NCBI GenBank assembly: GCA_000091205.1
Contig: AP006500.2
DNA from: Cyanidioschyzon merolae
Taxonomy: Eukaryota
Strand: one strand, 5' to 3'
DNA: 64,000 nt
Part shown: in pieces, positions 3,176-64,000 of the stretch
Position numbering within the stretch: position 1 is the stretch's first letter
Layout: each line of letters opens with the position of its first letter
Made by a program: the position numbers and the translations under genes
The notes under the pieces: generated by a model
Told to the model about the DNA's origin: nothing
The model's database searches: none
The model's input: only the letters and a program-made list of their open reading frames with translations

Positions 3176-5149
3176 CTAGACCTCTGAGCTGGGGTTCGTT
3201 GTCGTTGACGTTGCAGGGCACGCAACTGTACGAGCGGACTCCAATTGTCTTGCAAGCTCTTCTAGCTGCTCATGAAAGATGCCCTTCATATCAGCGATAT
3301 CTTCGCGCAGTTCCTGGACGAGCTCCTCTTTCTCCCCGAGCAGCTCGAGAAGGGCCTGCTCGCGTTCATGCATCCGCCGGATTTCATCGTCCAGACGCTT
3401 CACTTGGGCAGCCTGTGATTCAAGTTTCTCGTTAAGTTGTGCCATCTCGCTCGTCAAGTTCTGAATAATGTCTTCGCGTCGCATAAGTTCCGTTTGGAGA
3501 CTGCGAATCACATTCGCGCGGTGACGCAGGTGCGACTGAACTTCCGTCCACTGCACGAGGTTTGGTAGCGAGCCCGAAAGCAGCAACTCTCCAGCACTTA
3601 CTGAAGAGCCAGGCGTACTGTGCCTTTCGTCCACTGCGTCCTCGGGCGCGGAAACGTTGTCAAGTGTTTCCCCTGCCACCAACGAGGCCGTTGGTGTGTC
3701 GCGAACTGTCTGCACTGCCGACGCTTCACCAGGTTGCATTTGCGATGCTGTCGGAACGGCTTCGCAGAGAGAGGGCGTCGTCATCAGCTGCCTGCGTTCG
3801 ATTTGAAGCCTTCTCCGCAAGCCGCCCAAAGCGTGGGCGGTTTCTCGTGCCTCAGACTCATAAGCACGCTGAAGCCGCAACCAGTCTTCTCGAAAAGTGA
3901 AGAGGGTCCTGCGTAGCTGAGCGCAACACGTGCGGATCTGGCTGAGCACTTTTGCCGCAGCGACGCGCTGTTCGCGTAGCGTCGACCCCAAGGCGACAAA
4001 GTCACGGAGTTTCCATTCGAGCTCGCGTGCACGTGTGTCGAGTCGCGTATGCTCTTCGAGTAATGCCGCTCGGGCTACATTTGCTGCCTCCAGTTCTGCT
4101 CGGATCTGGAGAACCTGCTGTTCGAGCCGCTCTTGGATGGTCGCTTCGCCGGCACTACGCTGACGGAGTTGTTCGTGCAGTACCTGAATTTGTCGCATGA
4201 GTGGTTTCGTCGCCTCGGAGACGCTCCTGGAGAGCTCTTCATTCTGTTGTTCCAACTCAGACACATGCGCACGAGCTTGTGCGACTTCCTCGCGCCACTG
4301 ACGCTCTCGCCGCCCCTGTTCCTGCTGTGTTCGCTCGAGGAGAGCCTTCACATGTTCGAGCTGGGACTGCAGAACTTCGAGCCGATCCCTGTACTCACTC
4401 TTGGCTATTTCAAGCTGTTCCTGCGCTTTCATGGCCAGACGCCTAGTCAGGCTTCGCAGCTCGGCCTCGTGTTCGTCGCGGAGCTCGTGAAGTCTAGTCT
4501 CTAGCGTCTGCAGCTCAGACCGCTGGACGTGTTCCTGCTCGCAATGCTTTCGTTGCTCTTCTGCTTGTTTCAACTGCGCCAGTTGTGCCTGGAGACGAGC
4601 CTGGCATTCCTGAACGCGCTCTTCCTCCTTTCGCAGCTGGAGTGCAGTGCTATTCGCTCGGCTACGCTCCGAGTCGACAAGACGTTCGAGTTCACGTATA
4701 CGTTTTCTCTGGGCTTGTACTTGCTGATCTCGTTCGTAAACGAGCTTGGATAGACGCTGCGCTTCCTGATATAGCTCCTGTGCGTTCTCTGCGGCCTCCA
4801 AAGAAGGGCGTGGACTCGGGAGCCGCCCCGGTCCGACCTGCGAACCGTAGCTGCCCGCTCCAGAGTCACGCTCCTTTGCATCAGTTCGCGGACTGTGGCC
4901 TTCTTCAGCACCGGTCGCAGCAAGAACGTGCGCTCTTGAAGCATCATCGGTCTCGCTGCGCAGCGTTTTCGAGTCGAACGAAGCGCCAGAATCCTGCTCA
5001 TGGGACGCTTCCGGTGAACGTCCACGCACCTCTGCGGTTGCAGACAACGCGGGTTCCGTTATCTCGGGCGCAGCAACGTCTTCCCATTCCTCCTCGTCAG
5101 CAACTGCTCGTCGCATCCAGCAGGTGGCCCAACGCTGAACTAGAACCAA
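3176..5149 (-). CDS. Long coiled-coil protein of unknown function (golgin/TMF-like heptad-rich protein)
   Basis: An uninterrupted 657-aa ORF, extremely rich in E/Q/R/L heptad-like segments ('ELERLVDSERSRANSTALQLRKEEERVQECQARLQAQLAQLKQAEEQRK...'). Only short ORFs are seen in its other frames. Confidence 0.5.
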   Translation of the reverse strand: MVLVQRWATCWMRRAVADEEEWEDVAAPEITEPALSATAEVRGRSPEASHEQDSGASFDSKTLRSETDDASRAHVLAATGAEEGHSPRTDAKERDSGAGSYGSQVGPGRLPSPRPSLEAAENAQELYQEAQRLSKLVYERDQQVQAQRKRIRELERLVDSERSRANSTALQLRKEEERVQECQARLQAQLAQLKQAEEQRKHCEQEHVQRSELQTLETRLHELRDEHEAELRSLTRRLAMKAQEQLEIAKSEYRDRLEVLQSQLEHVKALLERTQQEQGRRERQWREEVAQARAHVSELEQQNEELSRSVSEATKPLMRQIQVLHEQLRQRSAGEATIQERLEQQVLQIRAELEAANVARAALLEEHTRLDTRARELEWKLRDFVALGSTLREQRVAAAKVLSQIRTCCAQLRRTLFTFREDWLRLQRAYESEARETAHALGGLRRRLQIERRQLMTTPSLCEAVPTASQMQPGEASAVQTVRDTPTASLVAGETLDNVSAPEDAVDERHSTPGSSVSAGELLLSGSLPNLVQWTEVQSHLRHRANVIRSLQTELMRREDIIQNLTSEMAQLNEKLESQAAQVKRLDDEIRRMHEREQALLELLGEKEELVQELREDIADMKGIFHEQLEELARQLESARTVACPATSTTTNPSSEV

Positions 5150-6539
5150 TAAACTCTATTTGCTTCCTCCGCGAAGACGCGAACCTGTAAAGTGCTATGT
5201 GAGGATGCCAGTGCGCACTGGCACTTGCAGACAGCAGCGGCAACAAGCGCTGCTTCTCCTGGTTCAGTTGACTCCCGAACGCGGTGCCATGTGCATAGTA
5301 CAGAGGTATCAAGGTTTGAGCCATCATGGTGAAGCTCAACGGGTCTTTTTAAAATACGACCTGAGCAAATCTTGATCGAAGAAAACTTGCCGAATATACG
5401 CAACCCGCATCAACACCGTATGCGTAGACACTCCGTGGTTACGGGTACACAAAATCAAGTCTCGGAAAAGTCATCGGAGCATTTTGAGGCGGTCTGCTGG
5501 GTACAAGTCGAGGCAGACGCAACCTGCATTGCCGAAGTTTGACACACACGAACCAAGAATGCTCGCAGCAGTTTGTACACATCGCTTTGCAGCGAACCAT
5601 ACCGAAGCAATGGAGCTTCATCTGGAATGATTTCGTCAGCGTCTGTTGCTTCCCGATTCACCAGCAGTGGCTTTGATGCGCTAAGCAGGAAGCCAGTGCA
5701 GAGGACGATTGTGCACCAGGTTGCTTTGGACCCAACAAGAGTCCAGCATGGCCCGCGCAGTACTTGAACTCGTACGCGCGGTTGCGCAAGCATACGATGC
5801 ACTTGTCTGCAACCTGAGGAGACCTGCCAGTGTACCCTGGTCTGCAGAGGCGCGTTCGCATGCATTAGTCTCAATGCGGAAAAGAACGAACGGACACTGT
5901 TCATGGCTCGCTTGTGGACCCGTGGCCACCCAGAGAAACGACGGGGAACGAAGGCAAGCTAAGCGGGTTCCTGAGGGAGAAGCTCTCGATTCGAACGCGA
6001 GGACGTATCAAGAATTTTGGTGATTATGTTCCCGAGCCTTAAAGCGCTCATGAGAATCGTCCTCTCCTCCGAAAAGGATCGGGTTTCCACGAAATGCTTC
6101 CCCGGCAGCGTCACTGAAATCCACGCACCAGCGTCAGCAGCGAACGCGAATAATGCCACACGAACAATCCAGGCATACGGAATCAGGCAACTCGGAAACG
6201 TGTCATTCACGGCCTCGGAGATGTGGTGCTACCAGGAGGCACAAGCACAGGCAGCAACCGGAATCGTTGCAGAAGCAACAATGCCGGTACTTGCAATCAT
6301 TCCAATAGGAGTGGCTGCGGCTGTGCCAGATTGAAATGCGAAACTGCATTGCTTGCTCGGTTCTTTTCCGTCGTTTTCTCGCCCAGCCTCATGCGGTGTA
6401 CATCCGCTACATTCGAAGCGGAGCAACAGCGGCTTACGAATGCACGCGTCGGTTCAGGATCCGGAGTCGTCTCGTCCGAGAGGCTCCTTGGACGCGTCAC
6501 CGTTGCATTTCCGCATGCCATCGGAATCGAGATAGCTCG

Positions 6540-6960
6540 CGATGCCGCTGGAAACCAATTCCAAAATTAACCGATACCATTCCCGAGTTCATACAATGAA
6601 GCTTCGAGCCTGCCCCTCTCGTTACGTTTAGCATGCTCAAATCACACACGCTCCAAGTATTCGATTTCTCTGTTTCAAGGTCGCTCGTGGGCGGAGCATG
6701 TGGCGCTCCGGCACCGACCACGAAAGAGAATCGGTGTCATCTGCTTGGCAGCTTGTTGACCAGCGTATACCGCAAATTCAGTCAACCTGTAACGTCAAAT
6801 GAGAGAGATCGAATGTGTTCGAAAGACAGGTTCTCGCTTTTCTGTGGTCGTCGTCTACGCGGGATTCTACAGTACCATGACGCCTCTGACAGCGTATGCT
6901 CCAGGATGCTCCAGTCGGTTGCGCTTGCCCGCAAGAGGGTTTCTGAGTCAGACCTGACTC
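6540..6960 (+). repeat. Dispersed repeat family 2, copy 1 (~450 bp, carrying a small conserved ORF)
   Basis: It aligns by eye to 47730-48160 (+) and to the reverse complement of 42330-42800. All three share 'taaccgataYcRttgtYcaatgcaYaRgta...catgYtcaaatcac...ttcaaggtYtcgatYt...tttcaag'. An ORF starts at 6633 (MLKSHTLQVFDFSVS...). Confidence 0.65.
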
Positions 6961-7599
6961 ATCTACGGGATCGCATCCAGTGGAGCGTGTAGCATCGCTT
7001 TGCATGAGGCGAGCGTTGTCGGACGGGAGTCTCTCGACCTGTTCCCTGGTCTGGCGTCGCCTTCGAGGCCTTGGTGCATCATGGAAAACATCGCGCTCCA
7101 CGAACCCGCTATCGAGTGGACCAGCGTGCGCTTCCACGCCCAGCAGACAGCGTCCTCGACGCTGGGAGCGCCCTGAGGAAGCCCCTGATCGTAGAGTACG
7201 GCACGAGACGCAGAGACGCGAGGCGGGTATCGAGGATAGCCTGCAGTGCCTGCCACGAGCGTGTACCGAGCGATGACGCAAGCGTTGACGCGCCACAGGG
7301 CAGCCTTCTCATGAAGACGTGTGGTCTGCATATCGTTAGACCTGAACGCAGCCACGTGTCGTCTCTGCGAAGGGCGTCTCCAGGTTGTCTGGCGAAAGGA
7401 TGAGAGTGGCAGGCGAAACGTCGATCACAACTTTTGCCAGTGCACGGCATGCGTTGACAACAATCGGCAGCTACGACACCGGGATTTGAACACCACCACC
7501 TATATCCATCGACTGCTATCGACGGAGCTGGCGGCAAAGGGGAGACCAGCGTGTTTACACCCGGAGATTCGAGGAAACACAGGGAAACATTCTTGGGGA

Positions 7600-8290
7600 A
7601 AGAGGCCACAAACGCTGGTGCGCATAAGAATAGGACGAAACGAAAACCTCGGTGCGTACGTCTTTATCAGTGGATCTGTTCTATCTGGTACTGGCGTGAA
7701 CAGTGAAACAGAAAATGGTTCACAACCATGGACGGTAGATATATCCACTCACCCGCTGACGTCTCCCGGCCTTTTTGACCGACCCTCTGCTATCTGCTCC
7801 AGCTTTTCCTTCTACTCTTCGAGCCTGAGAGGCTGCCCCACAAACTTGTATCTCGTCAGCCCCGGGGGTCTCGTCTTCAGCACCACAAATCTCCTGGTAT
7901 TGATGACAGCGCTGAGGTCCTGGTACACGAATCCGATGCGTTTGCTGCCGCTGATAGAACTCATCAGTGCAAGAATTCCTCGAACTCGCGCACTCTGTTC
8001 CACTATAGTCTCATTGTCGTCCAGCCCAACAAACACCTTTTCCCGCCTATTTCCCTACTTATTCTTTTTCGTCCTCATTTGCCCCGTTTCGCTGGATGAT
8101 TGACGAGGAGCGGATCTTATTCGTTGTTTTCCAGCAGCCAGCGACACAGTGCATCCACGATCCCCGATTTAGGCATCAATACCTATCCCCTTGACTTTTT
8201 ATTTCTTCAACTGAACACACTGGGAACGCGTCTTCTATAACCCGAGAAAAGTCATTTTTAATGAAACGCATCTGGTAACGGAACACTATT
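7600..8290 (-). repeat. Truncated, diverged copy of the Fanzor/TnpB-like element 3' region (copy B)
   Basis: The ORF at 7812-8036 (-) reads 'RIGFVYQDLSAVINTRRFVVLKTRPPG', homologous to the '[27 protein letters not shown]' segment of copy A. Its downstream part (7600-7810) aligns by eye to the post-stop blocks of copies A, C and D ('gacgtctcccggcctttttgaccg'; 'ccatggttgtgaaccattttctgtttcactgt'). Upstream, 8040-8290 aligns to copies C and D. Confidence 0.7.
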
Positions 8291-23083: not shown

Positions 23084-25045
23084 TTACAGTGCGCTTGTGT
23101 TCAGCGAGGAAATATAATCCTTCAAGCCGACTAGACCACTAGTATGACGCAGTTTTCGAAACGCAGCATTCTCTATCGCTCTAACCTCTTCACGCGGTAA
23201 ACGCACCAGCGCACCTACTTCATCAATTGTCTTGGCAATGCCCGAGTCCAGACCGTATCGCAAACGCACAACCCTCATTTCCACATGATTCAGCAACTGG
23301 AGGGAACGCTCGAGATCTTCACGAAGCATGCTCAGCTCAATTTGCTCCTCAGGCGAAGCGCTTTCATGCACGATCGAATCCGCAAGGGTTGTGCGGTCTC
23401 GTTCCGAGCCAGACTGGTTGTTCCCAAACCGAACCGAGGATTCCAGCGAGATGGTCTGCACTGCAAGCGAACGCAATTCACGCAAGCGCTTCCGGGATAT
23501 TCCCAACCGTTCACAGATATCCGCTTCGGTTGGTTCGCAGCCCCGTTCGATGCTCAGGTCGCGCGCGGCTTTGCGAACGGCGAGTATGCGATCATGCATA
23601 TGAACAGGAAGCCGAACGATACGACCTTGGTCCGCAAGCGCGCGCATGACGCTCTGTTTCACCCACCAGGTCGCGTAGGTGCTGAAACGACATCCGCGTC
23701 GGTCGTCGAACTTTTCTGCCGCCCGAATGAGGCCGAGCGAGCCCTCCTGGATGAGATCCTCCAGGGGCAGACCTTTGCGCATGTATCGCTTGGCAATGGA
23801 CACCACGAGTCGGAGGTTCGCTGCTACCATACGGTCCTTCGCTCGCCGTGCTTCGGCAAGGTTCCTGCGAAAGCGCTCTGGGTCGACACCGAGATGCTCT
23901 GCGAGTTCATCATCCGTTGGTGCTCGATCCAGTGCCCCGTGGAGCTCGATTCGCTTGCGCTCCCAATGCAAAAGCCGTGAAATCTGACGTGAAAGCGATA
24001 CTTCCTCCTCAGGGGTGAGCATATCCACACGTCCGATCATGCGCAAGTACCAGCGCAGGGTACTGCTCTCGCTGGAACGCGCACGAGGGGTTTCGGGATA
24101 TGTCTCCCACGCCAGCGGCTCATTGTCGGAAGGATCATCTTCACTGTAGTCGAGTTCCCGAATGCTCGGTCCGTCATCATCCGCTGCACGTTCGCTGTCC
24201 TGGATGCGTTCCCACCGGGCATTCACTACGGCGGATGGATTCGTAGAGAGGGATCGACGTGATCCTTGTGGCAACTTGTGAACTGCATCATTCAGAGATG
24301 TTGGGCTGAGTCGTTGGTCGGCATTGGACAACTGACGTTGCCGAGCTGGCCGGACACTCTTACTTGAACGTGTTTTCGCGCTCGGAGAGGTAGTTTCACG
24401 CATATGAGCTTGCCCAGGCCCGCCAGGGTGCTTCGCCTCCCAGTTTGGTACCGGCAGGCGATTATCCACGGAAACGAAAGTTTCCTCCAAAGGGGTTTGG
24501 AGCGGCGAATCAGGTACTGCCGACGTAGACTGGCCAACACGAAGCGTTGCAGCTCTCGCCTGACGACGACGCGAGCTGCCGGTTCGCTCGGGCGTACGCT
24601 GCGCACCGGAACTCGCATCCGGAGTCGTACCGCTGTCCACTGACTTGGGCACATGTTCACGCTGCTCGTCGCGTGCCACGGGACCTAGCGGTGCTGGGGC
24701 ACAAACACTGTTCGCCTCCGGCTCAAGTTTTCTAGCTCCATCAACAAAACCATGCTTTTCGAGAGCGTACTCAGCGCCTAGGTCTCGTGATCTGTTCGTG
24801 TTCGCGCAGCAGCGACAGCTGCGCAAGAGGCGCGGCTCGGCCACAACTAGCCTCACACCGCGACCAGGGCAAGTCTTGCCGTGCTGCAACCGCTGCCCGG
24901 CACGCGGCAGATCCAGTTGCTTTAGCGGGCGCACCCTCCATAGACCGAGCGTCGCCGTGACGAAACCTACACCGTCGCTGCTTAGCCTGCAGCAGCGCGC
25001 CTCAGCGCTCGCGGTACGTCCCTGCGTGAACATTGCCCAAGCCAC
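23084..25045 (-). CDS. RNA polymerase sigma-70 family factor (nuclear-encoded plastid sigma factor)
   Basis: The C-terminal half carries canonical regions 2-4: 'RNLAEARRAKDRMVAANLRLVVSIAKRYMRKGLPLEDLIQEGSLGLIRAAEKFDDRRGCRFSTYATWWVKQSVMRAL' (regions 2.1-2.4), 'TIDEVGALVRLPREEVRAIENAAFRKLR' (region 4.2) and others. A long low-complexity N-terminal extension is consistent with an organelle-targeted eukaryotic sigma factor. Confidence 0.85.
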   Translation of the reverse strand: MAWAMFTQGRTASAEARCCRLSSDGVGFVTATLGLWRVRPLKQLDLPRAGQRLQHGKTCPGRGVRLVVAEPRLLRSCRCCANTNRSRDLGAEYALEKHGFVDGARKLEPEANSVCAPAPLGPVARDEQREHVPKSVDSGTTPDASSGAQRTPERTGSSRRRQARAATLRVGQSTSAVPDSPLQTPLEETFVSVDNRLPVPNWEAKHPGGPGQAHMRETTSPSAKTRSSKSVRPARQRQLSNADQRLSPTSLNDAVHKLPQGSRRSLSTNPSAVVNARWERIQDSERAADDDGPSIRELDYSEDDPSDNEPLAWETYPETPRARSSESSTLRWYLRMIGRVDMLTPEEEVSLSRQISRLLHWERKRIELHGALDRAPTDDELAEHLGVDPERFRRNLAEARRAKDRMVAANLRLVVSIAKRYMRKGLPLEDLIQEGSLGLIRAAEKFDDRRGCRFSTYATWWVKQSVMRALADQGRIVRLPVHMHDRILAVRKAARDLSIERGCEPTEADICERLGISRKRLRELRSLAVQTISLESSVRFGNNQSGSERDRTTLADSIVHESASPEEQIELSMLREDLERSLQLLNHVEMRVVRLRYGLDSGIAKTIDEVGALVRLPREEVRAIENAAFRKLRHTSGLVGLKDYISSLNTSAL

Positions 25046-25359
25046 GTCTGTCTCGATGCCCTCCCAAATTCAAGAAATAGGAGTCCAGCTCGAAGAACCA
25101 AGCTTCACCAAGTAGCCTTTTTGAGCAGAGCACGTCCCTGGTTCGACAAATGGGAGTACCACGAACGACAACCGCCTTTCAAAAGAAAAACGCTGTCACT
25201 GGCCGTATACAGTCGTGGCGGCGAATGCGCGTAGACAAAACGCCTCCAACTGACGCGCAGACGCTTCCGAGGCTTTCTCGACCGGCCACCCACGACTGCT
25301 TCCAATTGTTTCTAATATAGTTCCACTTTGGGATGTTGTCCAACAATGTTTTCTCATGT

Positions 25360-25884
25360 CTACGCTGGAGGTCTCTTCTCCAGCACCGCACATCTCCGGA
25401 TATTGATTGCGGCGTTAAAGTCTCGGTTCACAAACTCCATCCGTTTCTTGCCATCGTTGGTTGTACTTACGAATGCGAGTAGCCCTCGAACTTTCGCCCT
25501 CCTTTCCATTTGCTCCTCCGTCAGCGGTCCGAACTTTTTTATATCCTCAGGGCTCCGCTGGCACTTTTCCATATCGACCCGCTGGAGTGTACACCTCAGC
25601 CCGTGGTGTGTATACGATGTTCGGAACTCATCTACAGGTATCGTAACGAAACGCCTTGCGCACTGCTTGTACGTTCTTGTCGTTGGAGCTGGCGTACACC
25701 CTTTTCGGGTCTTCCAGCGCCCTGCTCCGCGTGCTACTACGAGCCTCTGACTTTTATCCTCTTTGAAGGCGCTCATTGGAAAAATTCGCAGATGCACGCT
25801 GCCTCCCACCGTATAGATGAATACGTAGACGAGCCCAAAAGGGCTTTGTGTACTCTTTCCACAGCGCCTCACAATGAGCAACAC
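25360..25884 (-). CDS. TnpB/Fanzor-like nuclease, C-terminal segment (OrfB Zn-ribbon region + RuvC-III)
   Basis: '...[30 protein letters not shown]...[28 protein letters not shown]'. The Zn finger appears degenerate (HH...C...C instead of CxxC...CxxC). Confidence 0.7.
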
Positions 25885-25975
25885 GAATTTCCATGAATTT
25901 CAGAAACGCTTTAAAGTCCGCTCCGCGGCAAGTCACCTCGCTCAAAGCTTCCCGGTGATCCTTCATTCCATCGTT

Positions 25976-26578
25976 CTACGTCTCAATTTTCTTCCTTGCA
26001 TTCATGATTCCCGATTCTCGATAGTATCTCGCTCTCGAGAACCTCAACAGACGCACGTCTTTCTGACGCAAGTTGCCGTCGGTATCATCTCCCCCACGCT
26101 TGGGTACAGCGACGGTTATAATATTCGTGTTCCCGGGGTCCGCGCCACCGACAAAGCAATTCTCATGCACTTTCCGCGTCGCAGGACCCGCCTCCTTCTT
26201 TTTTTCATGCTTCGTCGCGCCAACCGTAAAGTCGTTAGCTTGCACTTTCTGTGTCGCAGGATCCTTCTCCTTCTCATCTTCATGCTTCGTCAGCGGCGGA
26301 ACTGGACGATCCACCTTCAACCGCCGATAGTGTACACACAGGGCTACTCCATCGGTTTCGATCAACCCAGTGAACAACTTTTGCTTGCTTATTTTGAGAC
26401 GTTTGAAAACGAAGATATTCTTCCAGTGCATCTCCCTGTTCTCACCTGTGAACTCTGCCCTCCTTACATCGAACTCGGGACTGATCTCCTTCATGATGCC
26501 ATGAAGGACTCTGGAGCCGGTAGTAACAAAATGTGACTTGATGGTGCACATTGGAACGACGTTGGAGCGCTTCCCCAT
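25976..26578 (-). CDS. TnpB/Fanzor-like nuclease, central segment with the RuvC-I motif
   Basis: '...[51 protein letters not shown]'. It contains an internal tandem duplication of ~66 bp (26160-26290; '[16 protein letters not shown]' / '[16 protein letters not shown]'). It is out of frame with the downstream segment, indicating a frameshift or a small intron. Confidence 0.65.
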
Positions 26579-29500
26579 TAGGGCCGCCTTCCGTCTCTCC
26601 CACTCTTCATTTTTTCGTCACTCAGCTTTATTTCCGCCTTGCGTTCTGGCGCTCGGTCCAGAAACGCGAAATAGCACAGAATGAGGCGATAGTATCTTTC
26701 ATTATCTTTTTTCAGCTCTGATATCTTTTCTCTTGAATTCGCCAGCCCCGAGACTGCACGGTGCTCTTGTATAACAGCACGGATTACAGAAGCTTCATTC
26801 GTGCTCCTGCGTGATTTCTTCTCGTCGACGAATTCGATCTAATCTTCATGCTTGCGATCGTTCGTGATACCGTTGATAATCGCCCATATTCCTTTGCGAG
26901 ACAGGCCCGGGTAAATTGCAAACACGGCGCATATCATAAAACGTTCGAGGTTCATCCTCAAATGCTTCTTCAGGTTCGTGAGGTACTTCATCGCCCCGTA
27001 TGTGTAAGTATCCCGGTCACCCCTGTATCGAGTACCCTCGAAGCGGAATTCCGCGAAGTTTTCGTGGAGGACGTGCACTAGCTCATTTTCCGTCCGCGTT
27101 TCCCCTGTGCCAAGCATCAGGTGACGAATAAAGGTCTTGTCGAAAACTCGTCCGGAATCTCGACTGTTTCCGTATGCGCCACGTCTTCGTACATCTCCCT
27201 CGCCATATGCATGACTCCTAAAGAAGCCTTTATAACACTCATGGGGTACGAATCGACACGGTTCCTGATAGCGTCTCGCAACTTTTCCTTGTAGGGATCC
27301 TTGATATGTTTACGAAGACAGGCGTTTACCACCATCTCGTCGTACTTTCGTCTTTCGTACAGCATGTAAAGTCGGGTCTCCTGCCTTAGCTTCTTCGTCT
27401 TCTCCTGCTCCACTTGGCTCGGCACTCTGTTTCGCTTTCTCTGGCAGCCGGCGAGGTTGTACCACCGGTATCATCCACTTGCTTCTCCATACGTTTCCAT
27501 TTTTGAAAAAGAACGCGCTTTGATCGCTTCTGCTATGTAGCGCGAAAAATCAATCGAATACACCCCCCCTGAGGATTGAAACACAATGGAACTGAGAAGC
27601 TATACTTGCGGCCACTTTCACACAAATACACCCTGTACGATAGAACAACACGCGAAAGATCAGAATCGCGTTTCCCTTCAACGGCGACATGCGCGTCATG
27701 TCTCGTGACTGCCGGATCTCCCGGGTGCGCGTATCGAGCGCACTATGTACCAACAAGAACATAGACTAACGATAAACTACCAACGATACAAAAATTCCTT
27801 TCCCCTCTACGATAAACGTTGAACGTGGGAAACCGCTTCCGTACTGTCGAAAGTTAGCCTTCTTGACGGAAGGTCCCGCGAGCCGGACGAGTCTGTCACG
27901 TTTGTGTTTCATGCTGCACTCAGTGGCAGGTACTTCAGTGGCAGGTACTTCAGTGAAATCTGAGCCACTCGTCCGCAACGCAGTTTCCTCTGAGACTAGG
28001 GGCAGTTAAGCTGTGTCTGGGCGTCGCCCATGTTGCAACTATCTCCGAGCATATCGCTTGGCGCTGCTGCAGGCAGTAGGGCTGTCTGCCCAGTTTTCAG
28101 GCTCCCAGAATGACAATTAGCTCTGATTCCGTGTCAGGTGTAGTATTCGTCGGGCCGACACCATCGGGAGTATGGCAAAGCCGTTCTGGCTACGTGCAGC
28201 ATCTGCTCCAGCGGTGTAGGCGCTGCAGCGGGTGCTCAGCGCAGGCACTCGGCACACGGTAGAACGTTCGAAACGATCAGTATACCCGAGATGAAGAGTA
28301 AGTAATGGAACTTGAAGGTAGGATGCATGATGATGGGCGCTTCCCCGAAAGCCATTATCTATGCCGCAATCTGAGATCCATGGTTCATGTAAACGTTTTG
28401 ATATCGAAAAAAAAATCGCTACCGCCATTGTCATCCCCGCGGATCCATCAACTGGTGATCGCCTCGTCCATGATCTGTTTCATTGCACAGGTCGCTCGAT
28501 GGACAAGCGTTCCTCAACTGCGCGCTTGAGATGAGCGATCGGGAAAGCATCCATCGATCTAGGTCCTGCCTCCAAGTTCCGTGGTGCATACGTCTCCTCC
28601 GAGTGTACTCGTTATCTCTTATGTTCTGTGGTATGCGTCGAGGCTGTTGTGAGCGTTTGCGATAGCGCGTGTAGCGTCGATGCGCACGCAGCCCCGAGGT
28701 CATGTCCACGAAGCGGTTTGTGTGCACGGCCGCCGATGTATTGCTAGTGAAACATGTCGATACAGTGGATCGGGAGTGCTCTGGATGCACTGGTGCTGTC
28801 GGCAGCTGGGGAATGGACACTTGTTTCTTCTCGGATATGGCAGCGTCGTGATGCCTGCAGACCAATTTCCTAGACGAGAATCGGGATTCATAGCATAGAC
28901 GCTTGAACGCTGCGCCCTATCAAACCGCTGGTAGCGGAGCCTGTGGCAGCGCGCAACCCTATACGCCCGCTCGTGCCGCGGAGCATGGCGCAGGCTTCAT
29001 GGTATTCGCGCATGCGTTCAAAAAAGGGTCCCGGAGTGCATCGCTGCCCGTTCCACTGAGGTCGCAGGCTCACCGATACCGCCTCATCGATCCTGGGGCC
29101 GTTCATATCAGTGGATGGAGGTGCTGCGTGATGAAACTACGCAGAGAGGTTTTACCTGGATTCAGACTGCAGCAGGAAGCACGCCTTCGTTCAGTCTCGA
29201 GAGTGCTTGCCTCAGCAGCAGCGCAGTGTCATTTGCCATGAAAACCTACGCAGGTGTCCCAGCGGTCCAGCGTCGCGAGAGGCTACGGATAGCAGCTCCC
29301 CCCGGATCGATGCAGATGCAATTGCGGCTAGGCGAAACCGATATCTGTGCCCGGCACGAATCGTGAATGTGGATACGTATACGGATGCATCCATAAGTGC
29401 GTCCATCGCTCGCCAAGGTCGATGCAGCGTCCGTTATTGCGCAAAAAACGACGATTCCGTGGACCTTCAGCGAAAAGGCGAGCTGCGCTCCACATTCCAT

Positions 29501-42949: not shown

Positions 42950-43650
42950 ACAGCTAGAACATAGTTCCGGAAAAGAATCGAACTGGATGAACAAAGCGAG
43001 TCATCCCCTACTCGATTTTATCGTCAGCGAAATGAGAAATGTTCTACGATAATTGAGGGTGTATGAATACATACATACGCAGACGCCTCCCAGCCTTGTT
43101 TTGACCGGTTCCCCGATACCGGTTTCAGCTTCTCCCTGTATACTTCGATCCTGAGAGGCTGCTGGACAAAAGTTGGACCGGGGCAGCTTCGAGGGTCACG
43201 TCCCCGGTACCAAACTTCTTCTGATATTGATGGCGGCGTTGAAGTCTCGGTTCACGAACTCCATGCGTTTATTGCCGCTGGTGAAGCGTATCATTGCAAA
43301 GATCCCTAGAACTCGTACCCTCTGTCCCAGTACAATCTCGCTATCGTCCCATCGGACAAACAGCTGTTCTCGAGTATATATCCCCTGTTCTTGTTCTTCG
43401 TCACTTGCTTTTCTTCGCTAGATAGTCGACGAGAAGAGGATCTTTTTCGGTTTTTATCCCGGTCGCCAGCGACACCAGCCCTCTAGAATCCCCGACTCCC
43501 ATGTCCATACGGTTCGCTTAGATTTCTTATTTCTTCAAATGAACGCTTTTCGGACGCTTCGATTACAAACCGAGAAAAAGCGTTTGATGCGACGCACCCG
43601 GAGATGGCGCACAATTCAAGAAAGCGTCTACAATCTGACACGAGCCCACC
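42950..43650 (-). repeat. Truncated, diverged copy of the Fanzor/TnpB-like element 3' region (copy C)
   Basis: The reverse complement of 43201-43260 encodes '...[20 protein letters not shown]'. The reported plus-strand ORF 43173-43421 is the antisense frame of this. The flanks align to copy B ('cttcgatcctgagaggctgc', 'gcagacgcctcccagccttgttttgaccgg', 'ttatttcttcaaatgaac...ccgagaaaaagcgtttgatgcgacgcacccgg'). Confidence 0.7.
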
Positions 43651-44692
43651 GCGGCTCGAGCAGGCAACGTACGCTCAGTGCCGCCTTTCGCTTCCTCGGT
43701 GTCGGTCTGGTACCTGGGCGCCACGAATGGGGCGCTGCAGCTCGTGTCGGAACAAGACGATATACTTTTGCTATGTAAATCGAGAGTTTATTTGCTTGAA
43801 CTGCGTGTTCCAGCCGAGGTATGAACTTTCCGTTGTGCGCTCGTACAAGGAATGGATTCGAGACTCGAGCTACGAGCAGCCTCCACGTTGTCCGTTTACC
43901 GGAGCGCCTCTCCGACACGGTGAGGAGCTGGTTCGGCTACCACCCCCTGACCTACGTGTGGTTTCCGCCGCGGGACTCGCAGCTTATCTTCGTGGGCGTT
44001 TCGGCCCGGACACAACACCAGCAGGATTCCGTTCGAACGAGCTGCCTTTCGGGTTGGTGCCGGACCCGCAGGATGACTCTGCAGTGGCGCAGCGTTTGCG
44101 GAGGTTCCTCGCGTTGCTCGGCTATGATGCAGCTCTAGCCGTAGCAGAGCCGCTGGAAGACAAACGTTCGAGTCCCGGCACCGTCTCGGCAGAGGGAGGC
44201 ACGCAAGCCGCCAGCGAGGCAACGCTGTTGGAGCGGCGCCTCCCGAGCGAGCAACGCCCGGTGTCTCGCCCGCTGGAGGCCACCACAGAGGCCGTGAGTC
44301 GCACGGCGCCGCGAACGGGCTCCAACACAACGATCGTGGTGGAGTCTCACAAAACCTCCGAGCCCGACTCCACGACAGCGATCGCTCCGGCACGGAAGCA
44401 GAACGCTGCTGGTCGTACAGCGGATAATGACAGCAAGGAACGCAAAATACGACAACAGAAAATACGGCGGTTCCTCAACTTTTTAGGTCAGAGCGCTGAA
44501 GTGCTCCCTTTGCCACATCCACGACCTAATCGTCGAAACCGTCGTCTGACGGGGCTCGCGCTGTCCTTCGGCTTCGGCGTGGGTATTTTAGTGTTTCTCG
44601 CGTACGTGGTTCGTCATGGTCTATTCAATCCGCTGGCTTTATGGGAATATGTCGTCGAAAGACGTCAGGGCATGTTGAGCGTTGAGCGTTGA
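43604..44692 (+). CDS. ZFPL1: ZFPL1-like (zinc finger protein-like 1) tail-anchored Golgi protein
   Basis: The N-terminal Zn-finger/RING-like region 'CSSCRNKTIYFCYVNREFICLNCVFQPRYELSVVRSYKEWIRDSSYEQPPRCPFTGAPL' matches the ZFPL1 pattern ('...NLFCFEHRVNVCEHCLV...CIVQSYLQWLQDSDY...C..C..PL'). There is a single C-terminal transmembrane helix, 'LALSFGFGVGILVFLAYVV'. Confidence 0.7.
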   Translation: MAHNSRKRLQSDTSPPRLEQATYAQCRLSLPRCRSGTWAPRMGRCSSCRNKTIYFCYVNREFICLNCVFQPRYELSVVRSYKEWIRDSSYEQPPRCPFTGAPLRHGEELVRLPPPDLRVVSAAGLAAYLRGRFGPDTTPAGFRSNELPFGLVPDPQDDSAVAQRLRRFLALLGYDAALAVAEPLEDKRSSPGTVSAEGGTQAASEATLLERRLPSEQRPVSRPLEATTEAVSRTAPRTGSNTTIVVESHKTSEPDSTTAIAPARKQNAAGRTADNDSKERKIRQQKIRRFLNFLGQSAEVLPLPHPRPNRRNRRLTGLALSFGFGVGILVFLAYVVRHGLFNPLALWEYVVERRQGMLSVER

Positions 44693-48160: not shown

Positions 48161-49015
48161 CTCTTTGCAACAAAACAGCGTAGACCGATCGACATTTCTC
48201 GACTTGTTCTTCAACCTGGATTTTCCTTCCGGTACTTTTTTTCATCTCGGATAACATTGCATTCCGCAAATCCTCGATCGAATGCGACGCAGTGCGCTAG
48301 CGTATGCAGCGGACAGTGTACTCGCCCAGGGCATGTATCCGAACTGGCGCGTGTGAACGTCGGGCACGGCACCGGGCGCGGAAACGGTGGCCTGCATCGA
48401 GGCGCGCCTTGTGTTCGCGTCAAGCTCATGTACCGAACGATAAAGCAAGCGCTCACGCTCCACAGAACGGATACCAGAGGCGGAGGAGAACCTGTGATGG
48501 GCGTGCCAGAGAACATCACCCCAGCTCAATATCACCGCCGCAATGGGTGCACCGCGGCTTCATACGAAAGAAGATGAACATGGCAAGCGAGACGTAGATT
48601 GCAAGTTTCGTCGATACATGGAATTCGTCAACAGCAGCCGGAATCAACGACATCGGGACATGAACGCTGCCAGCAACAGCCTTTAAATACTAACAACACG
48701 GTACACGATAGAACCTATGCAGCAACCAGTATATCCCAGAGCACGTATGGAGTTTGGGGCTTGGAAGCAGGGCGCGGAATCATGTATGCTTCACCGCGCG
48801 CTGATATCGAGCGCACTGTCGGGGAACGCTAGCGTGCTTCAACGTTTTTGTCACAGAAACAAGAATGCTGACAACGGGACTGGAGGGAAACGATAGACCG
48901 GCGTATTCAAATCCGGAGAAAACGTGTTGAAAAGGAAGCATTCGCAGAGAACGCCCTCCTAGACGAGAACTGATGACACTGGGAACAGATCCAGACTTTA
49001 GCATGTACGCTTTCG

Positions 49016-58840: not shown

Positions 58841-61800
58841 CTAGCCTTGCCCGCGGTCCGGCGCCCGTCGCTGTCCACGGTGACCGGTGGCATCCGTGGT
58901 CGACGACGTGGCATCGATTGAGGTAACAGGCACCAGGCCGGCAACCTGTGCAACCGAACTCGAATGCCGTTTCAGTGCCGGCATCTGTCCGTACATGGCC
59001 TGTACCAGATCATGCACATCCAGGGGCGGCGACGGCGACGGCGACGGCGACGATCGTGCTGACGGCGATGTCGGCAATGGTGATGGTGAACGTGTGGATT
59101 TCGCATCCACCACCTTGTCGTAGTCGTAGGAAAAGGAATCTGCACGAGTGATTCGCTCGCTCCCGGTCAACCGAGGATCATCGTGTGCGTGTGTCCATGA
59201 CGCGTCTCTGGTCAGCTCTGGAGCACACTCGTCGGTTCGTGAAGATTTCCCAACGAACGATTTCATGAACGACTCATCTACGGTTACAACATGCAAGCCG
59301 CTGAGCGGAACCTCGCTCGCCGGTTCCGAGGTTGCCCTCCGCGACGGACCTGCAGCAGGCATATCATTCGTTATCGCCGAGTCGCTGCTCGTCGCCGGTT
59401 GCAGCGCCGAACTTTCATACACTGGCGTCTGCAAACAAGCACCTTCATCGAGAATGGCGCCTGCGGATTGAGCCGGGCGATAGAGCACAGAGGCGCCCTC
59501 CAAAAACGATGCCGCATGACACGTGTCTACTTCAGAGGCGTGCACGCATCGCGTCTGATCCGTGCTGAGATTTTCCCGCGCATCCGACGGTGGCGTTTCC
59601 ATAACAACGACAACAGGCACGCCAGCGGCATTGGGTACACTGCTTGCCGGTCGCAGGGGTGGTGCAGTTGGCGCAACGCTGCTGCGTAGCACTTGGGCAA
59701 CACAATCTGGGGTGCCCAGAGGCGCACCAGGAGGCAAGCCCTGTGCGGCTTCGCGCCTGTCGTTGCCCGCTCGCTCACTGGGCTTCGGTGCCGTATGCAC
59801 CGCTCTAGTGTCGCTGTTCGAAATCTCTGTGATCGTCGATAATCCCGAAATCGTCTGTGCGGGTGTTCTCTCAACAGGCGGAGACGCAGACGAACGAAGA
59901 GCCGTTGGCGCCGGCGCTCCAGGTACACTGACGAGATTGGGGCTCGCCTCCGACTCGGGCGGCTCTTGAAGACGCTCCAGCGGGGTGGTAACGACTCGAA
60001 TCGTGGGTATGCTGGAGACCGTCTCGACGGGCAGTGGCTTGGTTCGCGGTAATCCGGCGGTCGCTGTCGGTTGCAGATGAAGATCGAGTTGTCGATCAAT
60101 CGCCTGTGCAATGTTCTCAGCTTGGGCTTCGTCGAGGTTCAGTTCTTCGACCATCTCGCGAGCGACCTGCTCCGCTGACTCCCGATACGGGTCCATGGCG
60201 AAGGTGATGCGCTTCACCGCGCCAGACACTGGAATTCGCACTGAAAGCACCAAAATCCCCGAGTATACAAGTTTCCTGTCATTGACGCCGGAACGATTCG
60301 TAGCGTCGACCGAGGTGACATCTACGCTCAGGGCGTGTTGCGAATCCGGTACAGCGCTGGTGTCTGTCCCGCTGATACTACCCGATTCCGCCGGAAGGAT
60401 ACTTCGGAAGGACTCATCCGCTCGGCCGATAACACGCACAATGGGACGCGTTGGCGGTGCTGCGGCCGCCTCGTCGATATCCACGCCCTCAAAGATGCGT
60501 CTGCGTCCCGGGCCTTGATGTAACGCACCCGCGGCCGCGTCTGCTTGCTGGACACCAAGGAGACCGCAGATAGCGTCCTTCGTGCGTTCTTCTCCCGCGA
60601 CCGCACTCGAGTCCTTCGCATTCGGGGACTGGTCGTGTAAAGCCGAAATCGTCGGCGATGCATTGTGCGACGCACGACCAGCGATGATGTAGTTCACCGT
60701 AATATTGCCAGCCGATGTTGCTTTCCCAGTAGCTGGGTGTTCCACGATGCTATGCGCCTCGGCATCAGGTGTCGTTTGGTCGCCGTTGCGTGCCCGGGCT
60801 CGCGACGGTGCATGCTCCATAGACAGTCGCGACACTGTGGTCGATGATGGCGAGGGTGACAGGTTCGATGTCAACGACTGCTTGGCAGCGTTCGTGTCAC
60901 CGTCGGGAAATTGCGTCATCGACCGCGGAACTTCCAGCGACGAGCGCGAGCGCCCGCTGTTTGGCGAGACCATCAAGTCTACGTTCGAGAGTGAACCATC
61001 GTCGCTTTCCCAGTCGGCGAAGAGCGGGTGATTGAGCAGCTGCAATGCTGTCGGGCGCTGCGACTCGGACGCCAAACACTGGAGGATGACGCGCTTCAGA
61101 TCGCACTCGACCATCCGGCTGAGCGCTTCCGGAAGCACCCCGTTGAGAACCTTCTTGAAGATCTGGCCCGCATTTTCGCATTCTGCGTACGGATACTCTG
61201 TGCTGACCATTTCGAGCATGCACATGCCAAAGGCATAGATGTCAATTTTTTCACTGTAATTCTCATCGTACAGTTCGGGCGCCATAAATTCGGGTGTCCC
61301 AATGACCGTGTACCCGCATTTGCTCGCGCGATCCTTCACCGAACTCAAACCAAGATCCCCGATCTTCACCTCGCCAATGTTTCCGTTGATGAAAATATTG
61401 TCGCATTTGAGGTCACGGTGCATAATCGGTGGCGTACACGAGTGGAGATAATGGATCGCTTCGAGGACGTTGCGGCACCACTTGCGAATAACCTTGACCT
61501 TGATCATTTTCACCTTCGCAATATACTGTTTCAAGGTCCCACTCGTCATTAGTTCCGTGATAAAATGCGCTCCTCGGACCCGGCCGCGCTCGTCGCGAAC
61601 CTCCCAACCTGCAAACAAATTGATAATATTCGGATGCTGAATAGAGCGCAGGATATTCACTTCATTCATCACTCGCTCTGTGTCCTGATTCGTCAGTCTC
61701 TGAATATTCAACTTATTCCAGGCCACCTCTATCCCGTTATCTGTATCGAAACCCTTGTACACGGTTTTATAGGCACCGGTTCCGAGAACTTCGGGAAACC

Positions 61801-62224
61801 TGAGGAATCGGCCATCAGGAGAGCGCTCCTCGAAACAGTCATCGTTGTCTTCCGTGCTGGGGCTCTGAGCGCTAGGCGCAGTCACTATGCCAGCCGGAGC
61901 ACTGGCAGCTTCACCACTGCGATGCATACCGCCGGCTGCGGCACCAGAAATCATAGCCCCAGCGCCCGGCTGTCCACCGTTCACTGGACTCAACACAGGC
62001 GGCGCCGACTGCTCCTGTGTGACAGTTGTTTCGGAGCACACACCAAGCAGAACTGGCGCCGCCTCCGTTGAATCAAAACACGCTGCGGCACTGGGCACCG
62101 CCGCACCGGCATCAGCTGGAACCGCGCGCCTAGCCGGCATCACAGGGTCCCACAGCTCCGCCCGCCTAGACACGAACGGCCCATTCACTGAAGAAGGTTC
62201 GCCCTGCTCGTCGTCTCCCATCAT
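58841..62224 (-). CDS. WNK: WNK-family ('with no lysine') serine/threonine protein kinase with a long low-complexity C-terminal tail
   Basis: The kinase domain reads 'LGTGAYKTVYKGFDTDNGIEVAWNKLNIQRL...' and has the WNK hallmarks: the catalytic Lys is in the beta2 strand 'AYKTVYKG', and 'VAWN' replaces the VAIK lysine. It also has 'IMHRDLKCDNIFINGNIGEVKIGDLGLS' and 'GTPEFMAPELY'. This is an uninterrupted 1127-aa ORF. Confidence 0.85.
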   Translation of the reverse strand: MMGDDEQGEPSSVNGPFVSRRAELWDPVMPARRAVPADAGAAVPSAAACFDSTEAAPVLLGVCSETTVTQEQSAPPVLSPVNGGQPGAGAMISGAAAGGMHRSGEAASAPAGIVTAPSAQSPSTEDNDDCFEERSPDGRFLRFPEVLGTGAYKTVYKGFDTDNGIEVAWNKLNIQRLTNQDTERVMNEVNILRSIQHPNIINLFAGWEVRDERGRVRGAHFITELMTSGTLKQYIAKVKMIKVKVIRKWCRNVLEAIHYLHSCTPPIMHRDLKCDNIFINGNIGEVKIGDLGLSSVKDRASKCGYTVIGTPEFMAPELYDENYSEKIDIYAFGMCMLEMVSTEYPYAECENAGQIFKKVLNGVLPEALSRMVECDLKRVILQCLASESQRPTALQLLNHPLFADWESDDGSLSNVDLMVSPNSGRSRSSLEVPRSMTQFPDGDTNAAKQSLTSNLSPSPSSTTVSRLSMEHAPSRARARNGDQTTPDAEAHSIVEHPATGKATSAGNITVNYIIAGRASHNASPTISALHDQSPNAKDSSAVAGEERTKDAICGLLGVQQADAAAGALHQGPGRRRIFEGVDIDEAAAAPPTRPIVRVIGRADESFRSILPAESGSISGTDTSAVPDSQHALSVDVTSVDATNRSGVNDRKLVYSGILVLSVRIPVSGAVKRITFAMDPYRESAEQVAREMVEELNLDEAQAENIAQAIDRQLDLHLQPTATAGLPRTKPLPVETVSSIPTIRVVTTPLERLQEPPESEASPNLVSVPGAPAPTALRSSASPPVERTPAQTISGLSTITEISNSDTRAVHTAPKPSERAGNDRREAAQGLPPGAPLGTPDCVAQVLRSSVAPTAPPLRPASSVPNAAGVPVVVVMETPPSDARENLSTDQTRCVHASEVDTCHAASFLEGASVLYRPAQSAGAILDEGACLQTPVYESSALQPATSSDSAITNDMPAAGPSRRATSEPASEVPLSGLHVVTVDESFMKSFVGKSSRTDECAPELTRDASWTHAHDDPRLTGSERITRADSFSYDYDKVVDAKSTRSPSPLPTSPSARSSPSPSPSPPLDVHDLVQAMYGQMPALKRHSSSVAQVAGLVPVTSIDATSSTTDATGHRGQRRAPDRGQG

Positions 62225-62624
62225 GCGAAGCAGCTCAATACGCTAACCCTATGCCGGGAACGACGCGATGGGAGAAGGCTTGCGCCAGAAACGCACGTCC
62301 AGTGTGTGTGTGTATGCGAGACAGAGAGCGCCTACGCGAGTCCCGTGCGCGCACCGTTTGCAGCAATGCGCGCGCGCCGTTTGACGCCCCCCAGCGCGCC
62401 TGGACGCGCACCGCACCGAGGCGCTGGCCCCGCGCACCGGTGCCGTTTGATGGCGCGCCTGGACGCGCGAAGCGGCGCCTTCGGTACATCGCGCGGCGCT
62501 CGAGCGCGCGCCGGCACGCATCGATCCACGAAAGGTGCCCGCGACGTCGCGATGGCAGCTGCACGCACAGCATGTGACGTGACAACACGTTTCGGGGACA
62601 CGCTGCGGCGTGTTGCGTCGAATT

Positions 62625-62663
62625 ACGTTGCGCGCTGGTAACTAGCGCGCAACGTAATTGTAT
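62625..62663. repeat. Perfect GC-rich inverted repeat, 15-bp arms and a 9-nt spacer (aattacgttgcgcgc-tggtaacta-gcgcgcaacgtaatt)
   Basis: The right arm is the exact reverse complement of the left arm. It lies ~400 bp upstream of the WNK kinase start codon and at the 5' edge of Fanzor-related copy D. Confidence 0.9.
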
Positions 62664-63300
62664 TCCGTGGCCGGGAGCGTGTCGTCGAATGCTGTTTCGC
62701 GGTTGATGGCAGGGGCGTTGACGTGCGTTCATTTGAATGAACGAAAAAAATCCAAAGGAAATGCATGGAGATAAAGGTCGGGGATTCCAGAGGGCTGGCA
62801 TCTCTGGGTACCGTGAAAGGACTGAAAATTCTCTTCTCGTTGACTATCGGGCGTAGGAGAGCAAGTGACGAAATGGAAGAAGAGAAGATATCATCGAGAC
62901 AAGGCGTTTGTCCTACGGGACGATGACGGGACTATAGTGGGACGGAGGATGCGAGCTCTAGGAATCCTGGCAATCATGCGTTTCACTGGAGGCAATAAAC
63001 GCAAGGAAACCGTGAACCGGGACTTCAACGCCGCCATCAATACCAGATGATGCGCGGCGCTGGAGACGAGACCCGAGGAGCAGAGGCGAGCGAGCTTTGT
63101 GGGGCCCCCTCTGAGGCTCGATGTCTACGTCGAGGAAAGTGATACCGAGCGCAGGCGGTCGGTCAAGAAAGGTTGGGCAGCGTCTGCGCGTGGACACGTA
63201 CGTAGATCTTCCATGGCTGCGAAACGTTTGCGTTTACTGTCATGTTTAGTAGAGTTTTTTGGTTTGACACGTCGTCTACAGCGACGATAGATCCCAGATT
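62650..63300 (+). repeat. Truncated, diverged copy of the Fanzor/TnpB-like element 3' region (copy D, plus orientation)
   Basis: The ORF at 62865-63050 (+) reads '...[33 protein letters not shown]'. Downstream, 'gtcggtcaagaaaggttgggcagcgtctgcgcgtggacacg...ccatggctgcgaaacgtttgcgtttactgtca' matches the post-stop blocks of copies A and B. Upstream, 62690-62865 matches copies B and C. A perfect 15-bp inverted repeat sits at the 5' boundary (62625-62663). Confidence 0.7.
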
Positions 63301-64000
63301 GCGGGATGGAATCTGGTATTCGGGAAAGCATCGAACATGCAGCACCCTACCTTCAAGCTTTGTAACCCCGAATGCTTCTCGTATATATTGGTAGTTTCGT
63401 ACAGTCTATTGCGCATCGAGTGCCTGCCCTGAGCACCCGCTACAGCGCTTATACCGCTGGTGCGCATGCAGCACAGTAACGGAACGCCTTTGCCATACGA
63501 CTTGGGGCGTCGCCTGGAGGCGAACTGCCCCTGAACCAGGCTCCGGTCTTGTCGCCGCTGCGCGACGCTCTGGAGAAACCAGACAGCAGCTAGGATGAAT
63601 CCTGAGCGCCGCCTCTCACGTTCGCGATGTTGTACGCAAAGCGTTGTCGGTTGGCGACGCGGGCTTTTGCTTGGCATTCACCAGTGAGCAGGTGTGCAAG
63701 GCACCGGGCCTTCCGACGAGAAGGTAGAATGTGAGTTTGCTGGCCGCTACTGAGCGTTGGGGCTCGCTCAGTTACGAGACCGACGCCTCAATCGATACGA
63801 GCGCGGATGGATTGGACGGGCGTATGCGGCCTGTGGGGTGGTCTTGTGCCACAGGCGCTTCCGCTGACGGGTACGCGGTGCGCTCGGAGCTCGGGTGCTC
63901 TGCGCGTTTGTTACGGAGTATTGGGGTCAGCGCTGGACACGTTCAGGTACGGAGTAGGAAAATAAGCATGCATAGGATGGGGGTTTGTTGTCTTGTGCGC

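Follow-up and report, generated by a model that had tools for sequence, protein, structure and literature searches.

A WNK-like kinase gene of Cyanidioschyzon merolae is preceded by a probable internally deleted relic of a DNA transposon encoding Fanzor1

Introduction

Upstream of a gene for a WNK-like protein kinase in Cyanidioschyzon merolae, a red alga, lies a copy of a dispersed repeat, which raises the question of whether this sequence contributes to the regulation of the kinase gene, gives rise to a product of its own in the form of a small protein or an RNA, or is the remnant of a mobile element. The kinase gene (BAM82428.1) maps to 58841-62224 on the minus strand, with its ATG at 62224, and was identified by a Pfam Pkinase match (E=9e-49) and an exact match to the annotation. 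These coordinates refer to the 64-kb stretch of DNA that was analyzed here, which is part of C. merolae 10D chromosome 18 and is referred to as the window. Four of the proteins encoded in the window are identical to C. merolae 10D chromosome-18 entries, e.g., CMR169C and CMR174C, and intron-free ORFs in the window specify a plastid-type sigma factor, a TALE homeobox protein, and an MSL2/3-type channel.

The available part of the description by Bao & Jurka (2013, Mobile DNA 4:12; PMC3627910) reports one Fanzor1 family in C. merolae, CMe-1A, with about 150 copies that are ~80% identical to a ~3-kb consensus. According to the same source, terminal inverted repeats are absent, target-site duplications are undetermined, and the 5' 635 bp of CMe-1A constitute a separate element, TE-N2_CMe, with ~70 copies. 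Here, we analyzed the repeat copy upstream of the kinase gene, referred to as copy D, and present evidence that it is very likely a dead, non-autonomous, internally deleted, and decayed copy of a Fanzor1-encoding DNA transposon of C. merolae.

Results

Copy D spans ~595 bp (62656-63250) on the plus strand. Its extent is based on blastn comparisons with the three other copies in the window (A, B, and C), an alignment of copies A, C, and D, and nhmmer searches with a nucleotide HMM of the Fanzor family for which 36 independent 3' ends were used. D starts 432 bp and ends 1,026 bp upstream of the kinase ATG, in agreement with the original prediction that a repeat copy is located upstream of the kinase gene, and it is divergent from the kinase gene and oriented away from it. 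That prediction, which placed the copy at 62650-63300, had made itself dependent on homology in a formal alignment, and by blastn as well as nhmmer, D is clearly homologous to A, B, and C. A copy is indeed present within the predicted span, but the element itself covers 62656-63250, while the sequence from 63254 on belongs to a second element, referred to as element E. In blastn searches of the window, D matched copy C at 43078-43601 (minus strand; 71% identity over 527 nt, E=1e-63), copy A at 7750-8073 (minus strand; E=2e-30), and copy B at 25253-25452 (minus strand; E=2e-11). Overall, the four copies have 67-72% pairwise identity within 64 kb.

The 3'-end model had exactly four matches in the window, i.e., A at 8004-7696, B at 25529-25198, and C at 43340-43071, all on the minus strand, and D at 62920-63250 on the plus strand (E=6e-58). 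Thus, D is the sole plus-strand copy, as had been proposed, and the proposed conservation of the sequence after its stop codon holds for 63051-63250. Based on blastn, the A/C/D alignment, and nhmmer, copies A (7696-8290) and C (43071-43616), both on the minus strand, are ~600-bp deletion derivatives of the same form as D.

D was also described as lying downstream of a GC-rich direct-repeat region. A GC-rich stretch with repeats is present at 62360-62480, but it contains only a few short and imperfect direct repeats, with the core CGCCTGGACGCGC at 62397 and 62456, rather than an array, and Tandem Repeats Finder reported no tandem array in it. We note that eight independent assemblies of a slightly different strain (L087-L094) all break within the GC-rich stretch at ~62300-62450, 79-229 nt upstream of the kinase ATG, and this stretch seems to be hard to assemble or variable. 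The 5' boundary of D is overlapped by a palindrome (62621-62659) with 19-nt arms that are 95% complementary; next to it, 62607-62634 is a partial duplicate of 62674-62701.

To which family these copies belong can be read from copy B (25198-28416, minus strand), a full-length element of ~3.2 kb with a Fanzor1 pseudogene that was delimited by its chain of ORFs, by nhmmer, and by collinearity with locus L002. The pseudogene consists of ORF pieces from 27425 to 25360 on the minus strand that are separated by at least three frameshifts and two in-frame stops, and it carries all three RuvC motifs of TnpB-like nucleases, including GADPGNTN and VDEFRTS. On metagenome contig L002, positions 4343-7637 represent an insertion independent of B that is collinear with B 28400-25203 at 74-82% identity, and this collinearity over 3.2 kb sets the element boundaries. 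We interpret the full-length element as a unit of about 3.2 kb in which a 5' module and a short 3' end accompany an ORF of some 700 codons predicted to encode a TnpB-like RuvC nuclease. B is located between the FolD gene and the gene for the plastid-type sigma factor, and its 3' end lies upstream of the sigma-factor ORF, about 150 bp from the start of the latter (GTG at 25045).

The conceptual protein of B has 217 close relatives in hot-spring metagenomes (best E=1e-210), which are annotated only as DUF8286. In searches against PDB and Pfam, neither this protein alone nor a shallow profile of its close relatives (A6) gave a match, and an AlphaFold2 model based on a shallow alignment was unusable with a mean pLDDT of 34. 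However, a deeper profile (A8) succeeded. A8 was made of 54 full-length representatives out of the 1,447 cluster representatives found with A6, and the two profiles match each other with E=1e-126. Against PDB, A8 matched Fanzor1 of Parasitella parasitica (PpFz1, 9cf0; E=9.6e-20) and of Spizellomyces punctatus (SpuFz1, 8gkh; E=3.8e-11), and the match spans RuvC-I, RuvC-II, RuvC-III, and the C-terminal RP..L.R tail. R and D of RuvC-III are invariant in the 54 sequences, as are D421 and E592 of RuvC-I and RuvC-II, respectively, and the spacing from Asp to TS of about 170 residues in P0012 is inside the published range of D-X(125,275)-[TS][TS]. A C4 zinc finger (OrfB_Zn_ribbon) was not found between RuvC-II and RuvC-III, where the C. 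merolae family reads TSYTHHELGCTLQRVEMEKCQ with two His and two Cys. The wider clade of ~600-700-aa relatives has almost no Cys between VDEFRTS and NRD, and Pfam Cas12f1-like_TNB matches were sub-threshold (E=0.48 on B and 0.0023 on the relative P0197). Nevertheless, in the available part of their paper, Bao & Jurka class the C. merolae family as Fanzor1 (PMC3627910). Taken together, we assign the repeat family of the window to the Fanzor1 transposons, which encode a eukaryotic TnpB-like nuclease.

With the full-length element as a reference, copy D can be divided into four parts. The first (62656-62764) is a leader that, by alignment, is homologous to the sequence immediately 5' of the Fanzor start codon in full-length elements, i.e., L002 ~5170-5290 and B ~27590-27470; this alignment is supported by weak blastn matches (E=2e-4 each) that copies A and C have in L002, at 5182-5320 and 5274-5316. 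The second part (62765-62942) is, in an alignment with B, what remains of ~60 codons at the start of the Fanzor ORF. D has the ancestral ATG at 62765, and from there MEIKVGDSRG of D aligns with MEKQVDDTGG of B and, within the same N-terminal remnant, ...KAFVLRDDDGTIVG of D aligns with ...RLYMLYERRKYDEMVVN of B. In full-length copies, the counterpart of the 5' 290 nt of D is the region that surrounds the start codon (L002 ~5170-5450; B ~27590-27300).

The junction of an internal deletion that removed about 1.9 kb of the ORF is located at 62935-62950, and A, C, and D are collinear across it. At the junction of the 600-bp form, ...GACTATAGTGG is joined directly to GACGGAGG...; on the 5' side, A, C, and D align with the N-terminal region of L002 and B, and on the 3' side with the C-terminal region of L045, L083, and B. 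The third part of D (62943-63188) matches the last ~82 codons of Fanzor1 by blastx and hhalign. Blastx of D to P0102 and P0009 gave 47-57% identity (E=3e-16) with homology confined to 62943-63188; this part contains the RuvC-III motif NRDFNAAIN at 63015-63041 and a former C-terminal tail that reads CAALETRPEE..FVGPPLRLDVY.. When compared with the Fanzor1-family profile A8 using hhalign, the corresponding peptide of D (79 residues, with the TGA read as R) matched with a probability of 97% (E=9e-11). The RuvC-I and RuvC-II motifs as well as the zinc-ribbon segment are deleted, and only RuvC-III and the tail remain. Because RuvC-I and RuvC-II are missing, D is a fragment and not a gene. The fourth part (63189-63250) is a non-coding 3' terminal tail of the subfamily type present in A, C, L045, and L083; the alignment of these tails (A5) conserves ...CCATGG.TG.GAAAC.TTT...TTT.ACTG, past which similarity is lost.

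The reading frame of D is broken twice. The ancestral ATG opens a frame that ends in a stop codon at 62924-62926 and differs from the frame of the C-terminal part, and in the latter, a nonsense TGA is present at 63048-63050. The other copies have R or K at this position and each stops elsewhere, and both they and metagenomic homologues continue past it (INTRKCAVLETRPPE..., INIRRCAV...), which supports that the TGA is a nonsense mutation specific to D. Read through the TGA, D continues as CAALETRPEEQRRASFVGPPLRLDVY... and matches the family tail CAVLE.RPPE.TR.NF.GQPLKVELY, and intact relatives terminate 35-42 residues past NRD. The original description of D as ending in '...INTR' followed by a post-stop block is therefore correct as far as the ORF is concerned, but the TGA is a lesion and the block largely former C-terminal coding sequence. 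In our interpretation, the remainder of the block, roughly 60-130 nt after the coding part, is 3' terminal DNA.

Copies A, C, and D have a common 5' boundary (AATTGTR; 62656 in D), a common junction, and a common 3' end, and this collinearity from one end to the other supports that they represent one deletion derivative and not three random truncations. This ~600-bp form comprises, in our description, the leader and about 60 N-terminal codons of the predicted full-length element joined to its last ~80-100 codons and 3' end. The 3' tail of A, C, and D is closer to that of a diverged subfamily represented by the full-length copies L045 and L083 than the tail of B is. Their 5' boundary lies about 830 nt inside the 5' end of CMe-1A-type elements, and the derivative is without that terminus. 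For D and the family copies, we recognized no target-site duplications or terminal repeats that would prove transposition, and no inverted repeat pairing the two ends of D was found. The A/C/D form could equally be a relic that was duplicated by other means or that came from a variant with a shorter 5' end.

Element E (63254-~63766, plus strand), which was delimited by nhmmer and alignment, begins 3 nt after the 3' end of D and is a fragment of the 5'-terminal module of CMe-1A-type elements, i.e., TE-N2_CMe-like. A 5'-end nhmmer model matches E at 63254-63585 (E=5e-76); E aligns with B 28416-28090 and L002 4338-4660, and 63548-63766 matches the continuation of the module in L027, L028, L040, and L060. 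Among 90 matches of the 3'-end model, D is the sole one that adjoins a 5' module in this manner, and D and E are best read as two insertions side by side in head-to-tail orientation. We also considered whether the 3' end of copies generally carries ~25-30 nt of the 5' terminus as a direct repeat, as in tandem or circular-junction integration, and rejected this possibility because the tails aligned no better than control flanks (Wilcoxon P=0.14). In local alignments of 3' tails to the 5' consensus, only D, which adjoins E, had a high score.

The 5' module also occurs in other arrangements. At the 5' end of B, two modules (28082-28416 on the minus strand and 28496-28697 on the plus strand) are head-to-head about 80 bp apart and form a large imperfect inverted repeat, and an inverted module is also present upstream of the Fanzor part in metagenome loci L027, L040, L060, and L067-70. 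A solitary module fragment at 48697-48862 on the minus strand (nhmmer, E=3e-23) has no Fanzor sequence nearby. The 3' terminus of the family occurs in two alternative forms, ...GCGTTTTTCTTTTGAAAGGCGTTTG and ...GTCGTTCGACTTAGAACGGCG (loci L008-L076), each of which can form a short hairpin just before homology ends; these recall the subterminal hairpins of rolling-circle and single-strand transposons.

A comparison with the published description makes it very probable that the repeat family is either CMe-1A/TE-N2_CMe (Bao & Jurka 2013) or a sister subfamily. As described for CMe-1A, the family is from the same genome, encodes Fanzor1, has a full-length copy of about 3.2 kb and old, diverged copies (70-83% identity), and no terminal inverted repeats were seen. 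Moreover, the 5' module, for which we measured about 510 bp here and which has 635 bp in the available part of the CMe-1A/TE-N2_CMe description, is also free-standing, as at 63254-63766, 48862-48697, 28496-28697, and several metagenome loci. On the other hand, the 600-bp form of A, C, and D is absent from the available part of that description (PMC3627910), and the 3' tail of these three copies is of the L045/L083 subfamily type.

Is the relic upstream of the kinase gene of use to the kinase gene? An exapted module, in which D alone or D together with E would supply promoter or enhancer sequence to the divergent WNK-like kinase gene, is the best of the alternatives that we considered but still improbable. 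In its favor, D lies only 432-1,026 bp upstream of the ATG in a compact genome and retains the element's own leader, i.e., its promoter-proximal region, and each of the three short copies has its 5' end about 0-430 bp from the nearest gene start and is oriented away from it. However, three of three orientations is weak statistics, and a preference for promoter-proximal insertion explains them equally well; also, the transcriptional orientation of D is away from the kinase gene. The comparison with a sister genus also argues against this alternative. The C. merolae kinase ORF (1,127 aa) has 73% identity to the Cyanidiococcus WNK, and the gene order ABC-MscS-x-WNK is conserved in Cyanidiococcus yangmingshanensis, but the 730-bp intergenic region upstream of the syntenic kinase gene, up to the WD40 gene, contains no homologue of D or E.

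A 99.3%-identical strain (L085) does carry both D and E. Compared to L085, the kinase CDS has 12 differences in 3,384 nt (0.35%), the unique upstream DNA 8 in 431 (1.86%), D 7 in 595 (1.18%), and E 11 in 516 (2.13%). Thus, D diverges about 3-fold faster than the CDS and similarly to the neighboring non-coding DNA, and although the counts are small (7 in 595 nt for D), the comparison leans toward D diverging between strains like non-coding DNA. Overall, we consider a role of D in regulation of the kinase gene unlikely. On the 99.3%-identical metagenome contig, the 318 nt past the window end contain no new gene.

Several observations concern the genes next to the short copies. All three ~600-bp copies are head-to-head with genes, i.e., A with the Mn-SOD gene (ATG at 8571), C with CMR174C (ATG at 43604), and D with the kinase gene (ATG at 62224), a placement that may be due to chance or to a preference for promoter-proximal insertion. 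CMR174C is annotated with 362 aa, and its annotated start falls within the 5' edge of copy C, on the opposite strand; in metagenomes, the same gene is called with 295-321 aa, and the B-box-like Cys pattern is preceded by a second Met at 43727. The annotated N-terminus of CMR174C may be too long. A 260-aa ORF with a GTG start (7321-8103, plus strand) runs antisense across copy A, has no Pfam match, and is probably spurious. Finally, the Cyanidiococcus kinase (L084, 6001-8405) is annotated as two genes of 479 and 201 aa; the cause is either a split gene or a broken annotation.

TnpB and Fanzor proteins work with an omega RNA that is transcribed from the end region of the element and may overlap the ORF (PMC10432273; PMC10530073), and an omega-RNA origin is plausible for part of the conservation of the 3' block. 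D could then be an orphan guide-RNA gene whose 3' part gives rise to an omega-RNA-like transcript that, with the 5' terminus of E as the guide, would serve a Fanzor1 nuclease from another locus in trans. We regard this reading as very improbable. The deletion derivative has kept the 3' end region, and the youngest copy of the family (L002) folds better than its shuffles (z=-3.49). However, D itself is about 30% diverged from its relatives and folds only marginally better than shuffled sequences (z=-1.74; 10 of 200 shuffles were as good), with B at z=-0.66, and D has a disrupted version of the CTGGAG...CTCCAG hairpin, which CMe-1A-type copies keep in >90% of cells. The RNAalifold consensus of the 3' region was weak; five hand-picked hairpins in this region had covariation not above shuffles. 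Rfam gave no match in the whole window at the gathering threshold or around D at E<=1, and a tRNA scan found nothing. As for the nuclease, none of the 78 metagenome loci has an intact full-length Fanzor ORF, the longest being 623 aa without the N-terminus, while some C. merolae copies are intact according to the available part of Bao & Jurka 2013 (PMC3627910). We give equally little credence to the broader scenario in which A, C, and D would be "mini-Fanzor" elements that survive by means of a guide-RNA-encoding 3' end and in which an omega-like RNA from D would guide the Fanzor1 nuclease to the ends of the multi-copy TE-N2-like family.

We find it hardly credible that the transposon gave rise to a genuine gene for a small protein in D. 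Such a gene is suggested by an uninterrupted 61-codon ORF with a GTG start (62865-63050, plus strand), but this ORF holds just the last of the three catalytic motifs, has no Pfam match, and does not share the frame of the ancestral ATG at 62765, and the same regions of A and C are broken at other positions.

Discussion

Our analyses favor a history in which copy D is the decayed product of an internal deletion in a Fanzor1-encoding transposon. An ancestor of A, C, and D would have lost about 1.9 kb of the ORF, which joined the leader and an N-terminal stub to a C-terminal stub and the 3' terminus, and this 600-bp derivative would then have spread to at least three sites in the 64-kb window. 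Since then, the copies would have decayed to about 70% pairwise identity, with the frame of D being broken by a frameshift and the TGA. Together, D and E would form a small transposon graveyard upstream of the WNK-like kinase gene, and any effect on the kinase would be incidental. By analogy with related systems, the 3' terminal region of D may once have specified the scaffold of an omega guide RNA together with cis sequences for mobility. Today, we consider D an ordinary relic of an already known transposon family that most likely has no function, judging from its decay and its absence in one sister genus.

The closest experimentally characterized systems are SpuFz1 and PpFz1 (8gkh and 9cf0; Saito et al. 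2023, PMC10432273), with which the family profile aligns over the FTGxIxTDG region, DPG, DEFRT, NRD, and the RP..L.R tail. In contrast to these proteins, the red-algal family, whose nuclease activity is putative, has His/His/Cys/Cys at the site of the C4 zinc ribbon, and D keeps only RuvC-III and the tail. As in elements of the IS200/IS605 type with TnpB, a RuvC nuclease gene is present, conservation is highest at its 3' end and the transposon end downstream of it, which would encode the guide RNA, and this end is retained in non-autonomous derivatives; however, the red-algal family has a eukaryotic host, is without TnpA, and its omega RNA is putative. The short copies also resemble MITE-like internal-deletion derivatives in that several copies have one junction and the 3' terminus of the parent. 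Unlike these, A, C, and D are without terminal inverted repeats or target-site duplications, their 5' boundary is internal to the CMe-1A-type 5' end, and we infer their mobilization.

For the biology of the kinase, these findings have little consequence. The repeat near the kinase gene is best masked as transposon debris and not treated as a candidate for a regulatory sequence or an RNA gene. C. merolae is transformable, and the regulatory idea is therefore directly testable. For transposon biology, the findings are of modest value: they add detail to a known element by documenting an internal-deletion form of the red-algal Fanzor1 transposon and the 3' end as the most retained part of the family, and the profile search ties the red-algal family to the structurally solved Fanzor1 nucleases.
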